From: a virus
Lineage: Monodnaviria; Loebvirae; Hofneiviricota; Faserviricetes; Tubulavirales; Inoviridae
Direction: 5' to 3' (one strand)
DNA length: 8,258 nucleotides
Virus record (IMG/VR): IMGVR_UViG_2609459832_000001
Span: 1-8,258 of that record
Under the pieces are notes generated by a model. That model worked only from the letters and a program-made list of their open reading frames with translations, was not told the origin of the DNA and ran no database searches. This document shows, piece by piece, positions 5,233 through 7,628 of the stretch. A program made the position numbers and the translations under genes. Numbering within the stretch: the first letter of the stretch is position 1; each line of letters starts with the position of its first letter.

Positions 5233-5308
5233 AATCTCATTAAGGCGAATGATAATTACAGTTTTCTTTTCTGGGAGGAATTGTGTTTTTACGGAATTCC
5301 ATAACAAA

Positions 5309-5581
5309 TCACTTCTCTGAAATAGGAGTTAAAACAATTTTGCCAACGCGTAATTTTTGAAAGTCACCAACATAAATACTAGATGGATGCAACTCATATA
5401 AACCAGCCGCATATGGAGCCTGGCCTTGTTCAAGAGGAATTTTAAATAGTTGAGGGTAATCCCCACCGAGGAAAATATAACCAGACTGTTCAGATATCGT
5501 ATATGGTTTACCAGTGCTCTTAGAAACACCACTACGAGTATCTGCAACAGCTTGAGAAGGTTTAATTTCAATCTTAATCAT
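5309..5581 (-). CDS. ssDNA-binding protein, gene V protein homolog
   Basis: The 90-aa product MIKIEIKPSQAVADTRSGVSKSTGKPYTISEQSGYIFLGGDYPQLFKIPLEQGQAPYAAGLYELHPSSIYVGDF... aligns along its length with recalled M13 gVp MIKVEIKPSQAQFTTRSGVSRQGKPYSLNEQLCYVDLGNEYPVLVKITLDEGQPAYAPGLYTVHLSSFKVGQF.... SD AGGTG lies upstream of the ATG at 5581. Confidence 0.9.
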   Translation of the reverse strand: MIKIEIKPSQAVADTRSGVSKSTGKPYTISEQSGYIFLGGDYPQLFKIPLEQGQAPYAAGLYELHPSSIYVGDFQKLRVGKIVLTPISEK

Positions 5582-5594
5582 AATACACCTAATG

Positions 5595-6710
5595 TTAAGC
5601 TACACGTAAATAAGATGGCTTTATATACCAAGAAGGAATAACACAATCCGAAACAGTTATTTCTCTTGTTTGTTTCACAACAACAGGAGAGAATTTAGAG
5701 ATATTACATTTTTGAGCAATATCAATACCAATCTTCCTTAACCTTGCTCGATGTGTCTGGACTTGCTTTTTATTTAAATCAAAAATATGGCCGTGAAACC
5801 ATTGAATTGCATACATGGCTGTAGTATTGGCAGCACGAGTAGTGTCAACAACACCACGACTAATAAGATGTTCACTAATAGTTTCAAAGTCCATAGCATT
5901 CACCGATAACTTTTCATCAAGCTCAAGAAATTCAGAATGTAACTTATTTAACAAAGAGTAATCAGAAAGTCCCCAATAGCACATGGATTTTTTTTGAAGA
6001 AAACGAGACTTTAATTTTTGCTCAAACCTGACAATGCCGTTGTCCTTGCAGTAATTAATGACATCCATTATATAATTAAATTCTTTAGAATTCTCTGAGA
6101 ATTTATTTTTGATTTTCGCAAGGCTATGCAACTCAAGCTCATGAGCTTTGTTATATACTGTTGGGTATATAAGATTGACATTGCCTTTTTTTGAAAGCCA
6201 GTCAACGGATTTCCCATTGGAATGCAACCGTGGAATACTATTCCTGTAAGGTTGAGTAGAAAGACCTGATATATAATCATCCTCATTCCCCTTCCCTACT
6301 GATTTGTTTGATGTTATATGCAGTTCTTTAATTAAAGCACCATCAGTAATCAAATGAGCTTTTTCATTCTCTTTCGATTGTCCAGGCATTAACTTTGTAC
6401 ACTTGGTAAATAAAGGTAATTTCAGTTCAGTTAGAATCTGATTAAATACCATGACACAAGCATCTACAGTCGGAAACCCAAAAAGATTATCAAGACGTCC
6501 CCAGCGGGACGGATTTCCAGTCATTTTTAACACTGAACCACGGATCGAGATTGAAACAACATCACAGAAAGAGCCACGATGCTGGAAGGTTGGTTGAGAT
6601 AATGCGCTGGCCTCCCCGCTTTCAAGATGTATACGCTGATAAGCTACATCGCTCAGTATCGGCAACTGATAGCCGAAATCCTGTTCGATAGTTAACCAGT
6701 CGTAAAACAT
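5595..6710 (-). CDS. Replication initiation protein (gpII-like rolling-circle initiator)
   Basis: The large ORF immediately upstream of gV, in the Ff gII position. Internal block VRFEQKLKSRFLQKKSM resembles recalled M13 gpII VRFEARIKTRYLKSFGL. The ORF track begins at a TTG (6722); the first ATG is at 6710-6708 (MFYDWLTIEQ...) with GAGAG upstream, and that start is used here. Confidence 0.85.
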   Translation of the reverse strand: MFYDWLTIEQDFGYQLPILSDVAYQRIHLESGEASALSQPTFQHRGSFCDVVSISIRGSVLKMTGNPSRWGRLDNLFGFPTVDACVMVFNQILTELKLPLFTKCTKLMPGQSKENEKAHLITDGALIKELHITSNKSVGKGNEDDYISGLSTQPYRNSIPRLHSNGKSVDWLSKKGNVNLIYPTVYNKAHELELHSLAKIKNKFSENSKEFNYIMDVINYCKDNGIVRFEQKLKSRFLQKKSMCYWGLSDYSLLNKLHSEFLELDEKLSVNAMDFETISEHLISRGVVDTTRAANTTAMYAIQWFHGHIFDLNKKQVQTHRARLRKIGIDIAQKCNISKFSPVVVKQTREITVSDCVIPSWYIKPSYLRVA

Positions 6711-6763
6711 AGAATCTCTCAATCATTCAAGATGAGCCGCAAGGCTCAACACTGACACTTAAC

Positions 6764-6828
6764 GGTATCAATAATGATATTATCAAACATAACAGACGTC
6801 AATGGTATTGATACTAACAAATATCAAA
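6764..6828. promoter_or_regulatory. Operator-like cluster of TATCA/TGATA half-sites in the divergent gII / HTH-regulator intergenic region
   Basis: TATCA at 6766, 6781 and 6822; TGATA at 6775 and 6809. These form the palindromes TATCAATAATGATA (6766-6779) and TGATATTATCA (6775-6785), and the near-palindrome GTATTGATAC (6805-6814). The location between two divergent genes is typical of repressor operators. Confidence 0.45.
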
Positions 6829-6905
6829 ACTGACCCTACAGATTCAGCTATGAAAAATGGAGGTTAAAATTAAGACTTTGCAATCAGCATGAGAAGGCAG
6901 CAGAT

Positions 6906-7394
6906 ATGGCAGTAGACAAAGAGTGTGCAGAACGTATACGTCTGTCTATCATCCAAAATTTTACATATGACGATATCGAAAATGAAACAGGTATCAGCGT
7001 CAGTACCCTTAAACGGCTGGCTTCTGGAGAAAGGGAACCCAAATTAATAGAAATCAGGAAGATAGCTAAAGCGACAGGAAAAAATCCGGTATGGTTAGCA
7101 TTCGGTGAGTCAACCCTGCCTCTGCCTGAGAACCTTGGCGAAGATATGACTGCTTTTGGTTACGGTATGGATTTTAAGTTACAAGGTCATGAAGCAGGTG
7201 AAGCGGCGGCGAAAATCCGCCTGATGGCCGCGATCCGGGACATAGAGAAAGATGATGTTGTTTTTCTGGAAAAATTTATAGACTTGCTGAATCTGGATCG
7301 CACAATAAACAGCGTCAAAACCAAACGTTACGGCTACACAGAAGAAGAAACACTGAAAAGACTAAACCTTCCCCAGCCGAAGGGGAAAAAGTAA
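6906..7394 (+). CDS. HTH (XRE / Cro-CI family) transcriptional regulator, candidate phage repressor
   Basis: 162-aa ORF divergent from gII. The N-terminal segment YDDIENETGISVSTLKRLASGEREPKLIEIRKIAKATGKNPVWLAFGE fits the helix-turn-helix pattern of Cro/CI-type repressors. The ATG at 6906 is preceded by GAGAAGG. Confidence 0.8.
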   Translation: MAVDKECAERIRLSIIQNFTYDDIENETGISVSTLKRLASGEREPKLIEIRKIAKATGKNPVWLAFGESTLPLPENLGEDMTAFGYGMDFKLQGHEAGEAAAKIRLMAAIRDIEKDDVVFLEKFIDLLNLDRTINSVKTKRYGYTEEETLKRLNLPQPKGKK

Positions 7395-7398
7395 AAAT

Positions 7399-7446
7399 AC
7401 CGTGGGAAACCACGGTAAAGTTCGGGTGTCACAGAACTCCCGAACC
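7399..7446 (+). other. Two adjacent short hairpins downstream of the HTH gene: accgtgg-gaaa-ccacggt (7399-7418) and gttcggg..(loop)..cccgaac (7421-7446)
   Basis: Inverted repeats read directly from the sequence. No following U-tract, so they could be a weak terminator or the start of an origin or packaging-signal region. Confidence 0.35.
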
Positions 7447-7628
7447 GCTCCGCGGTTAAAAATTAAACGATAGTTTCGGGGGCGTCGCTGTCTGTCTGAA
7501 CAACAGCCGCACCGCCCTCGCTCCTGTCGTTGTCGGCGTCCTCCTCCCGTCGTCCTTCTCCGCCTCCACTCGCTGCGGTGCGGTACGGCTGAGGTCAGGA
7601 CATTTGCATCGCTAACTTAAGGGGAAGA

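Follow-up and report, generated by a model that had tools for sequence, protein, structure and literature searches.

A replication-and-regulation cassette very probably recombined into the GC-richer backbone of a dif-integrating E. coli filamentous prophage

Modular evolution of the inoviruses is said to have been described by Stassen et al. in 1992 for I2-2 versus IKe. Replication genes are the inovirus genes most often exchanged (Roux et al., 2019; PMC6813254), and replication and integration families cross inovirus families while structural genes are lineage-specific (PMC6813254). Non-homologous initiators of the Rep_trans and HUH types are both used within the group (PMC13595969). The phages UPphi901 and Ypfphi/CUS-1 have only gII and gV in common (>85%) and are otherwise unrelated, from which their authors infer past recombination (Shapiro and Putonti, 2020; PMC7307601). 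In CTXphi, as is established and in part cited in PMC7307601 and PMC3089051, a repressor divergent from the initiator forms with it a module, RS2 (rstR-rstA-rstB), that is joined to a morphogenesis core; variants of the repressor region define heteroimmune types, tandem prophages yield hybrids, and integration at dif proceeds via XerCD on a folded single-stranded attP made of two inverted dif-like sites.

The stretch of DNA analysed here (the window, 8,258 nucleotides in full) represents a single unit of a filamentous (inovirus) prophage of E. coli, which integrates at dif and carries its phage genes on the minus strand. Between 5221/5281 and 7416/7503 it holds what is very probably a self-contained replication-and-regulation cassette, recombined into a GC-richer backbone of different ancestry. 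Inoviruses are well known to exchange modules in this way, nothing in the window differs in principle, and the current understanding of filamentous-phage evolution is unchanged by it; the window is a specific example in which the exchanges are very recent. Like UPphi901 and Ypfphi, the window's relatives are enterobacterial inovirus prophages, dif-integrating and often in tandem, and heterogeneous arrays occur there too (PMC7307601). The window's backbone, however, is neither UPphi-like (IKe/I2-2-like) nor Ypfphi-like, its best pI match in the phage collection being 30-33% over the N-terminal half only; the scale here is micro-evolutionary, with backbones of at least about 96% nucleotide identity bearing four cassettes, some with non-homologous initiators; and the breakpoints of the window could be mapped to within tens of bases. 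With CTXphi it shares the divergent regulator, the joined module and a pair of inverted dif-like sites known here from sequence, but its initiator is of the G2P type, its gV belongs to PF02303, and exchange within the family swaps the whole initiator family and not just the repressor region. If1 (Infulavirus) resembles it in gII (80% aa and 76% nucleotide identity to If1 ORF320) and in a 62-bp hairpin element, which has a 96.8% identical counterpart within the major intergenic region of If1. Otherwise If1 is distant or unrelated: it differs in pI (32%) and pIV (23%), in gV, gVI and gVIII, which find no detectable match, and in ORF348, which stands where the window has its HTH gene; further, the If1 record has no annotated integration site, and no dif-like site turned up in it when 7 mismatches to dif were allowed. 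The features of the window are as follows.

437..1657, minus strand: gIV, secretin (PF00263 Secretin, E=1.8e-25); backbone, 54.8% GC
1667..2923, minus strand: gI, Zot-like assembly ATPase (PF05707 Zot); backbone, 55.3% GC
2931..3290, minus strand: gVI-like minor coat protein, assigned from position and size; backbone, GC3 0.63
3293..4618, minus strand: gIII, attachment protein (PF05357 Phage_Coat_A); backbone, 45.9% GC
4674..4949, minus strand: gVIII-like major coat protein, annotated in relatives as a 91-aa CDS; backbone
4970..5128, minus strand: gIX-like small hydrophobic ORF of 52 aa, 96-100% identical in sister prophages; backbone
5131..5232, minus strand: gVII-like hydrophobic ORF of 33 aa, the first backbone gene
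5233..5267, minus strand: backbone leader upstream of gVII, exactly common to prophages with three different cassettes
5268..5308, minus strand: cassette-side tail downstream of gV, including a 6-bp inverted repeat
5309..5581, minus strand: gV, ssDNA-binding protein of Ff type (PF02303, E=3.9e-24); cassette, 37.7% GC
5595..6722, minus strand: gII, rolling-circle replication initiator of If1/G2P type; cassette, 36.6% GC
6723..6905, no strand: control region from which gII and the HTH gene diverge, 36.1% GC
6906..7394, plus strand: XRE-family HTH regulator, divergent from gII (PF01381 HTH_3, E=2e-8); cassette, 43.6% GC
7399..7455, minus strand: three-hairpin element, right end of the cassette
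7416..7504, no strand: right recombination-joint zone
7479..7620, minus strand: GC-rich (63%) structured non-coding region that remains with the backbone
7800..7905, minus strand: attP-like pair of inverted dif-like sites; backbone

The direct evidence comes from sister prophages. The backbone occurs at ≥95.8% identity in 22 of 5426 complete E. coli genomes, and the complete cassette in 5, at ≥99.8%. In the same slot, E24377A has a Rep_trans initiator (PF02486), Sx181 a Phage_GPA initiator (PF05840) with DUF2726, and JNE23-011 a second G2P, 57% identical; a counterpart of gII was not found in E24377A or Sx181. Left of the joint, nucleotide identity to the window is 97.9% over 1-5220 for E24377A, 94.2% over 1-5280 for Sx181 and 93.8% over 1-5265 for JNE23-011, so that homology ends at about 5220, about 5280 and 5265, respectively; it resumes at 7416 in JNE23-011, 7479 in Sx181, 7497 in the GPA-type unit of UTME-13 and 7504 in E24377A. 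These two clusters (5220-5280 and 7416-7504) bracket the module extent of 5233-7450 proposed in a preliminary description of this DNA. In UTME-13, two window-type units are followed by at least two GPA-type units of the same backbone family in a mixed tandem array adjoining hipBA, and independent complete genomes show exactly the same junctions. Two-sided sharp breakpoints, non-homologous alternative cassettes, relatives that are discordant by similarity and a compositional discontinuity are found together at this locus.

The left joint is the gap between gV and gVII, which measures 76 bp (exactly 5233-5308) and was rightly singled out as unusual and as the place of the shift, the If1 spacer at the same place being 2 nt. 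It consists of the backbone leader and the tail downstream of gV. Sx181, JNE23-011 and the GPA-type unit of UTME-13 match the leader at every position over 33-35 nt, and in Sx181 this stretch contains the final codons and stop of a 141-aa ORF; the E24377A breakpoint falls in the first codons of the gVII-like ORF. The inverted repeat GGAATT/AATTCC reported in the gap is present (5277-5282 and 5295-5300) and has no demonstrable role: with a stem of 6 bp, a gap whose fold is equalled or bettered by 67 of 200 shuffles (z=-0.32) and other cassettes without it, the repeat was rejected as a functional hairpin or recombination signal and is attributed to chance. Likewise discarded was the idea that the gap contains a long remnant of a former occupant's gene, only the 33-35 nt being common to the GPA-type and JNE23-011 prophages; in the 318-nt gap of JNE23-011, no further remnant of an earlier gene was found. 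Without a long remnant, the ancestral cassette cannot be inferred from the gap.

At the right end, the hairpin element is 87-97% identical in If1, A37, PEC148, F11, L008, L009 and L010, and in JNE23-011 (L011) only 7416-7455 is in common, at 98% identity, because its 3' hairpin differs. The consensus fold has 13 invariant pairs, with compensatory changes in five of the six pairs of the 3' hairpin, and the hairpin at 7399-7416 is terminator-like and followed by a T-run. Of the three hairpins, the middle one (7420-7445) does not vary and is seen only together with G2P-type Reps, a co-occurrence that makes it a candidate cognate origin for gII; the Rep_trans cassette lacks the element and the GPA cassette has the 3' hairpin only. 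The adjoining region at 7479-7620 is kept across all four cassette types and is a candidate packaging signal or minus-strand origin; as single-stranded DNA, 7385-7620 folds at -46.2 kcal/mol (z=-4.1). An Rfam scan of the whole window gave no matches at E≤1.

It could be argued that the initiators themselves made the joints, rolling-circle replication from the origin of one prophage ending at the identical hairpin of its neighbour and the hybrid being packaged, as in Davis and Waldor's mechanism for CTXphi, which has been cited for CTXphi and Ypfphi (PMC7307601). Mixed tandem arrays at dif do exist; however, the junctions of such hybrids are the origin and the inter-prophage dif, and the left joint at 5220-5280 (gV/gVII) could not be produced in this way. 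Similarly, while the hairpin at 7420-7445 is identical among phages with G2P Reps that share only 57-91% identity, and the window/JNE23-011 right breakpoint at 7416 lies 4 nt from it, the Rep_trans and GPA cassettes lack this hairpin and yet have their right joints in the same zone, and the right breakpoints vary by cassette pair over the four positions given above. Such an origin of the joints is therefore considered improbable.

The base composition agrees with exchange of the cassette as a contrast, and less well as a map. GC is 38.5% in the cassette (5281-7478) and 50.5% in the backbone (437-5220; chi-square p=2e-20), 36.7% versus 45.3% within ±1.5 kb of the left joint (p=2e-6), and pooled GC3 is 0.296 versus 0.532 (p=1e-19), the difference thus sitting at synonymous sites. 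The preliminary description had proposed a two-block mosaic, with gV, gII and the HTH gene AT-rich up to about 7450 and gVII through gIV and the flanks GC-richer. Windowed GC and codon usage bear out part of this: a change point near 5200 coincides with the left joint, gV (GC3 0.22) and gII (GC3 0.31) are markedly AT-rich, and the flanks are at 49-51% GC. The HTH gene is compositionally intermediate instead, and on the right the compositional edge falls near 7000, which is short of 7450 and 400-500 bp to the cassette side of the right joint. The claim for gVII through gIV holds for gIV and gI, at 55%, but gIII, gVIII and gIX reach only 43-46% and the gVII-like ORF 41%. Four segments fit best, not two states: the BIC-penalised optimum gives 1-3100 at 54.2%, 3101-5200 at 45.4%, 5201-7000 at 36.4% and 7001-8258 at 47.8% GC, the change point near 5200 emerging only at a segmentation penalty of ln(n). 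Binary and high-penalty segmentation of the window detected a step at about 3220 alone, and none near 5200. This step, at 3100-3220 the strongest single one, lies within the morphogenesis module, and comparison of close backbone relatives revealed no identity break there, for which reason it was rejected as a recent module boundary; it may reflect older mosaicism, given the discordant distant relatives of gIV and gI. The largest step being inside the backbone and without an identity break, composition does not map one-to-one onto recent recombination, and by itself it is weak evidence, as the genes of the related phage A37 range from 31% to 45% GC.

A single lineage without any recombination, in which a positional or mutational GC gradient (for example, from longer exposure as ssDNA and C-to-T deamination downstream of the plus origin) or gene-specific selection shaped the composition, could account for several of these features. 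GC drops almost monotonically along the phage map, from 55% in gIV and gI through 48% (gVI), 46% (gIII), 45% (gVIII), 43% (gIX) and 41% (gVII) to 38% in gV and 37% in gII; T and G are enriched along the whole phage sense strand; and inoviruses such as A37 vary widely in gene GC even without obvious mosaicism. Nonetheless, this account is very improbable, being already largely refuted by the other cassettes, which occupy this slot of the backbone with 42.3% and 45.5% GC and a GPA Rep of 52.6%, and so show that composition is not set by position. No such gradient is seen in If1, A37 or F11, the GC of the cassette agrees with that of its relatives on other backbones, and the breakpoints and non-homologous Rep families are direct proof of replacement. 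As for the possibility that assembly or scaffolding fused two co-resident phages into an arrangement present in no real genome, near-identical tandem units do assemble poorly and strains hold several cassette types side by side, but its probability is negligible. Five complete genomes, independent of one another and from the USA and Japan, have these junctions, both UTME-13 copies match the 76-bp gap at 100% identity, and the ORFs across the joints are all intact in the window.

The relatives of the cassette ride on unrelated AT-rich backbones, namely those of If1, A37, PEC148, Salmonella and Kluyvera, with 39-44% GC overall and 35-41% in the Rep genes. A Salmonella prophage and an If1-like contig have the gII-IG-HTH-element block in one uninterrupted piece, 74-78% identical in nucleotide sequence. 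A single high-identity donor of the complete cassette was searched for and none was found, the best complete match being Kluyvera (55-80% aa identity), in which every cassette part is present together; megablast of the window against the phage collection returned If1 only, over gII and the 62-bp element. The initiator gII is 91% identical to that of A37, 88% to PEC148, 84% to L016, 80% to If1 and 57% to JNE23-011 at the aa level. Its C-terminal domain is a strong match to PF05155 G2P_X_C (E=3.9e-25), the N-terminal match to PF05144 is marginal (22.2 bits, cutoff 21.7), and its true start may be the ATG at 6710. In the UTME-13 copies it is frameshifted, so some copies are non-functional. The gV protein is 54.7% identical to M13/f1 gV and 80-87% identical to those of Izhakiella, Rosenbergiella and Kluyvera phages, and has no match in gV of A37 and If1. 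By these similarities the cassette is itself composite, with an If1/A37-like gII-HTH-origin block and an Ff-type gV, and the discordance between the nearest relatives of gII and gV indicates assembly in several steps. The HTH protein has related regulators in a Salmonella prophage (91% aa identity), L016 (85%) and Kluyvera (55%), each of them adjacent to a G2P-type Rep, and tblastn against the phage collection gave weak matches only, confined to the HTH domain; it is a putative repressor and immunity determinant. The control region, contiguous at the nucleotide level with the Salmonella, L016 and Kluyvera cassettes, contains a promoter-like TTGACG-17-TATCAT (6802-6774, minus strand) facing gII, a consensus match only. 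The separate relatives anticipated for the two modules are thus found, gII being closest to A37 and the morphogenesis proteins to E24377A (94-100%; gVII-like ORF, 88%). Recombination is upheld, but between more than the two lineages suggested, with at least four cassettes on the backbone.

The exchanged cassette comprises, in phage-sense order, the origin-like hairpin element, the divergent XRE-type HTH gene with its control region, the G2P-type gII and the Ff-type gV, and would act as a unit because an initiator must travel with the origin that it nicks and with its own regulator. Its low GC is very probably inherited from the AT-rich phage lineages in which its parts circulate, and is not positional. 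The recipient backbone would supply morphogenesis, packaging and integration, and retains its assembly genes together with the dif-like attP and the GC-rich structured region. Within the prophage family, exchange probably occurs by homologous recombination between co-resident prophages or replicative forms, tandem-stacked at dif, with homology provided by 5.2 kb of backbone on one side and a conserved region of about 400 bp on the other. Initially, the cassette would probably have been taken from a foreign phage by illegitimate or short-homology recombination; selection would then have retained only joints within two non-coding seams, which would leave the breakpoints clustered yet non-identical. 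The direction could equally be described as capture of the backbone by the cassette. A benefit might lie in heteroimmunity or replicon compatibility. That the slot from 7479-7620 to the gVII leader (5233-5267) is a dedicated exchange site, beyond selection tolerating joints there, is unlikely. On that reading, the invariant hairpin at 7420-7445, the attP hairpin and the 33-35-nt leader, short elements that otherwise unrelated enterobacterial inoviruses conserve, could serve as recombination 'linkers', and one assembly chassis would then sample HUH-type G2P, HUH-type GPA and Rep_trans replicons, with several copies of the same virion coexisting per cell as compatible, heteroimmune replicons stacked at dif.

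The family offers a natural experiment, a nearly isogenic virion-assembly chassis on four replication cassettes that include non-homologous initiator families. The data indicate that origin-like hairpins travel with replication, and the GC-rich structured region and attP with assembly and integration. Inovirus classification based on marker genes or composition can mislead, and co-resident prophages at dif may diversify, evading each other's repressors and initiators.

The prophage is of the Inoviridae type, with the conserved order gII-gV-gVII-gIX-gVIII-gIII-gVI-gI-gIV, a Zot-like pI, a pIV secretin, an ssDNA-binding gV and a rolling-circle initiator (PF02303, PF05155). Its gIV, gI, gVI, gIII, gVIII and gIX proteins are 94-100% identical to those of the E24377A prophage, with gIV at 100% and gI at 99.3%, and Sx181 matches the window's morphogenesis proteins at 92-100% except for gIII at 79%. 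Against If1 and phages with the A37-type backbone they reach 0-33%, the sole exception being gIV, at 53-55% to A37/PEC148/Kluyvera; gI matches Ff/If1 at 30-33% in the N-terminal half only. The gVI-like protein, for which a Pfam search gave no match, is 97-98% identical in sister prophages, the gVIII-like protein 92-95% to E24377A and Sx181 and 85% to JNE23-011, and the gVII-like ORF 100% in Sx181 and JNE23-011 and 88% in E24377A. The relatives adjoin dif, between the ydeQRST fimbrial genes and hipBA; those of E24377A and Sx181 are bounded on the left by a dif site carrying 1 mismatch and on the right by a hybrid site. The window's own dif-like site (7873-7900) has 8 differences from E. coli dif. 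In silico, the minus strand of 7800-7905 folds as ssDNA at -43.7 kcal/mol (z=-13.4), its two inverted dif-like sites forming a forked hairpin in which the arms are paired and a 6-nt bulge lies at the centre. Some relatives are known as circular or high-coverage contigs of phage size (A37 at 7.4 kb, L008 and L009), which may point indirectly to production of filamentous ssDNA virions. Finally, gIII, 96% identical to E24377A and 79% to Sx181 and JNE23-011, varies separately in its middle (about 3600-4400), where sliding-window identity falls to 62-85%.

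The stretch is a filamentous (inovirus) prophage with the phage genes on the minus strand, as established by its ORF map, Pfam matches and near-identical annotated prophages. E. coli strains E24377A and Sx181 carry the same prophage with the ydeQRST fimbrial genes on one side and hipBA on the other; its ends are marked by a dif site (1 mismatch) and by a hybrid dif-like site. Since 7887-8258 runs straight into position 1 of a following unit, the window represents a single unit of a genome that is circular or arranged in tandem.

Features of the window
437-1657, minus strand, gIV secretin (morphogenesis)
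1667-2923, minus strand, gI/Zot (morphogenesis)
2931-3290, minus strand, gVI-like (morphogenesis)
3293-4618, minus strand, gIII (morphogenesis)
4674-4949, minus strand, gVIII-like (morphogenesis)
4970-5128, minus strand, gIX-like (morphogenesis)
5131-5232, minus strand, gVII-like (morphogenesis)
5233-5308, gap of 76 bp between the gVII-like ORF and gV
5309-5581, minus strand, gV (replication/regulation)
5595-6722, minus strand, gII (replication/regulation)
Between gII and the HTH gene, control region of 183 bp
6906-7394, plus strand, XRE-type HTH gene (replication/regulation)

It is homology that proves the mosaicism of this genome. The morphogenesis backbone is shared with E. coli prophages that carry other replication/regulation cassettes in the same slot, and the points at which homology is lost and regained can be placed to the base.

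Homology to prophages of the same backbone family with other cassettes (window coordinates)
E24377A: left block 1-5220, 97.9% identity; homology resumes at 7504
Sx181: left block 1-5280, 94.2% identity; homology resumes at 7479
JNE23-011: left block 1-5265, 93.8% identity; homology resumes at 7416
UTME-13, unit with Phage_GPA-type initiator: homology resumes at 7497

Between these limits E24377A carries a Rep_trans (PF02486) initiator and small ORFs unrelated to the window cassette; Sx181 a Phage_GPA (PF05840) endonuclease, a 141-aa ORF and DUF2726; and JNE23-011 an SSB of 115 aa, an HTH protein of 108 aa and a further Rep of the G2P type (57% aa identity). Of 5426 complete E. coli genomes, 22 have the backbone at 95.8% identity or more, and in five of these the full window cassette is present as well (at least 99.8%). 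The backbone proteins are 94-100% identical to those of E24377A (gVII-like ORF 88%) and 92-100% to those of Sx181 (gIII 79%), and 0-33% to those of If1, Ff or F11; the best match of pI in the phage collection is 30-33%, and the backbone has no close relative there. What is specific here is thus the presence of four cassettes, non-homologous initiators included, on backbones about 96% identical or more, with breakpoints resolved at base level. Within the otherwise 98-100% identical backbone, variable patches lie at ~3600-4400 (the middle of gIII; down to 62-85% in Sx181 and JNE23-011) and 4800-5000 (the 5' part of gVIII; 74% in JNE23-011), which are probably exchanges of host-range or coat alleles.

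The cassette itself has a different ancestry. Its gII product shows 91% identity to the Rep encoded by the 7.4-kb circular element of strain A37, 88% to that of PEC148, 84% to that of an If1-like metagenomic contig (L016), 80% to that of If1 and 74-79% to those of Salmonella, Izhakiella, Kluyvera and Rosenbergiella phages. A contiguous match covering ~5596-7460 (gII, control region, HTH gene and hairpin element; 74-78% nt identity) occurs in a PEC148-type Salmonella prophage and in L016, whose backbones are unrelated to that of the window. gV, an Ff-type PF02303 protein 55% identical to M13 gV, lies outside this block and has its close relatives (80-87%) in Izhakiella, Rosenbergiella and Kluyvera phages; A37, If1, L016 and the Salmonella prophage have gV proteins of other types. 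Only a Kluyvera contig holds all parts together (55-80% aa identity). Because the relatives of gV differ from those of the gII-HTH block, the cassette, though a coherent unit in function, is composite in its history. The recombination between two inovirus lineages proposed in the preliminary description is therefore supported as an interpretation, with separate nearest relatives for the two modules, except that more than two lineages are involved. In L016, a Fic-domain gene (8034-8768) adjoins the HTH regulator.

In base composition, the observation that an AT-rich replication module stands against a GC-richer remainder is confirmed in part: the cassette has 38.5% GC vs 50.5% for the backbone (p=2e-20), and 36.7% vs 45.3% within ±1.5 kb of the left joint (p=2e-6). 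By gene, the backbone descends from gIV (54.8%) and gI (55.3%) through gVI (47.8%), gIII (45.9%), gVIII (45%) and gIX-like (42.8%) to gVII-like (41%), against 37.7% for gV, 36.6% for gII and 43.6% for the HTH gene; the flanks have 49-51%. The difference resides at synonymous sites (GC3 0.296 vs 0.532). There are more than two states, however, as BIC-type segmentation gives four blocks (1-3100, 54.2%; 3101-5200, 45.4%; 5201-7000, 36.4%; 7001-8258, 47.8%). The shift described at the gV/gVII gap is real and well placed (~5200) but ranks second, and the right edge, proposed at 7450, falls compositionally at ~7000. The biggest step is found within the morphogenesis genes, at the gVI/gIII boundary (~3100-3290; 54% to 45%, GC3 0.63 to 0.45), where close backbone relatives show no identity break. 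gIV is similar to A37-type gIV (53-55%) and gI only to Ff/If1/F11 (30-33%), and these discordant relatives hint at an older mosaicism behind the step. Composition alone is no proof of mosaicism, since the genes of A37 span 31-45% GC. The cassette relatives on other backbones are all AT-rich (39-44% overall, Rep genes 35-41%), which accounts for the composition of the cassette.

The 76-bp gap, exactly as long as first described and indeed unusual (the If1 spacer at the same place has 2 nt), is simply the seam. Its first 33-35 nt (5233-5267) are identical across prophages with three different cassettes, the end of the 141-aa ORF of Sx181 falling within the matching stretch, and form the gVII leader of the backbone; the cassette accounts for the other 41-43 nt (5266/5268-5308). 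The E24377A joint lies somewhat further in and replaces the first gVII codons. The inverted repeat noted in the gap is present (5277-5282 and 5295-5300), but its stem has only 6 bp, the fold of the gap is no more stable than that of shuffled sequence (z=-0.32), and the repeat is at chance level.

At the right, a three-hairpin element (7399-7455) closes the cassette, with a plus origin, a minus origin or a terminator as candidate roles. The middle hairpin (7420-7445) shows no variation among nine phages, every one with a G2P-type Rep, and is absent from the Rep_trans and GPA cassettes; we infer that it is the cognate plus-strand origin or part of it. The 3' hairpin, kept by compensatory changes in five of six pairs and followed by a T-run, would be a terminator or an ssDNA structural element. 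The element recurs at 87-97% identity in If1, A37, PEC148, CUS-1-like F11 prophages and several further Enterobacterales inoviruses, and at ~90% in about 30 further E. coli genomes; JNE23-011 shares only 7416-7455 (98%), because its 3' hairpin differs. Just beyond the cassette, 7479-7620 (63% GC; z=-4.1 for 7385-7620) is strongly structured and conserved whichever cassette type is present; it stays with the assembly genes and is a candidate for the packaging signal or for the minus-strand origin.

Functionally, the cassette would contribute an initiator with the matching origin, an SSB and a dedicated regulator, and the backbone packaging, assembly, export and XerCD-dependent integration. UTME-13 carries, next to hipBA, two window-type units and then at least two GPA-type units of the same backbone family, and JNE23-011 has three copies in tandem. 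Such arrays, together with replicative forms, could offer long flanking homology, and we infer RecA-type cassette exchange within the family, the initial capture from an unrelated phage presumably requiring illegitimate or short-homology recombination. On either side the breakpoints cluster without coinciding (left 5220, 5265, 5280; right 7416, 7479, 7497, 7504), a pattern more readily explained by selection for joints in non-coding seams than by site-specific recombination. Hybrids formed when the initiator acts across adjacent origins, a CTXphi mechanism cited in PMC7307601, could explain the 7416 joint but not those on the left. A mutational gradient along the genome without recombination is excluded, as the alternative cassettes in this slot have GC contents of 42-46% (one Rep 52.6%) and related phages show no gradient; so is an assembly artefact, the junctions being identical in five independent complete genomes.

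The layout is comparable to the RS2/core organisation of CTXphi, in which the repressor is divergent, heteroimmune variants exist and tandem prophages yield hybrids. Module exchange in inoviruses is already an established phenomenon: only gII and gV are common to UPphi901 and Ypfphi (PMC7307601), replication and integration genes are those most exchanged (PMC6813254), and both Rep_trans and HUH initiators, which are not homologous, are in use among inoviruses (PMC13595969).

The attP-like region (7800-7905) holds two inverted dif-like sites (~7809-7829, 7873-7900) around a GC hairpin. Folded in silico as ssDNA, its phage strand gives a very stable fork-shaped hairpin (-43.7 kcal/mol, z=-13.4), its Xer arms paired and its centre bulged by 6 nt, a predicted fold resembling CTXphi attP(+). 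Conservation of the region stands at 83-86% in the otherwise unrelated Izhakiella, Rosenbergiella, Salmonella and L016 phages. Between it and the GC-rich structured region lies orf57 (7629-7802, plus strand; 57 aa, hydrophobic core), without a match in a Pfam search and 98% conserved on this backbone whichever cassette type it carries (WP_001409659/WP_170867409). The dif-adjacent arrays reach three to four or more units in UTME-13 (L012, 2470787-2500016), which mixes two cassette types, and JNE23-011 (L011). In UTME-13 a frameshift splits gII in both window-type copies, and a protein with a TolA C-terminal domain is encoded as well in the GPA-type units. Finally, ~650 bp of gIV (437-1084, its 3' part) recur at 99% identity on ~104-kb plasmids of UTAK-18, UTME-13 and UTAK-3, strains that carry both prophage and plasmid, and a 124-bp piece (629-752) occurs on similar plasmids of other prophage carriers.
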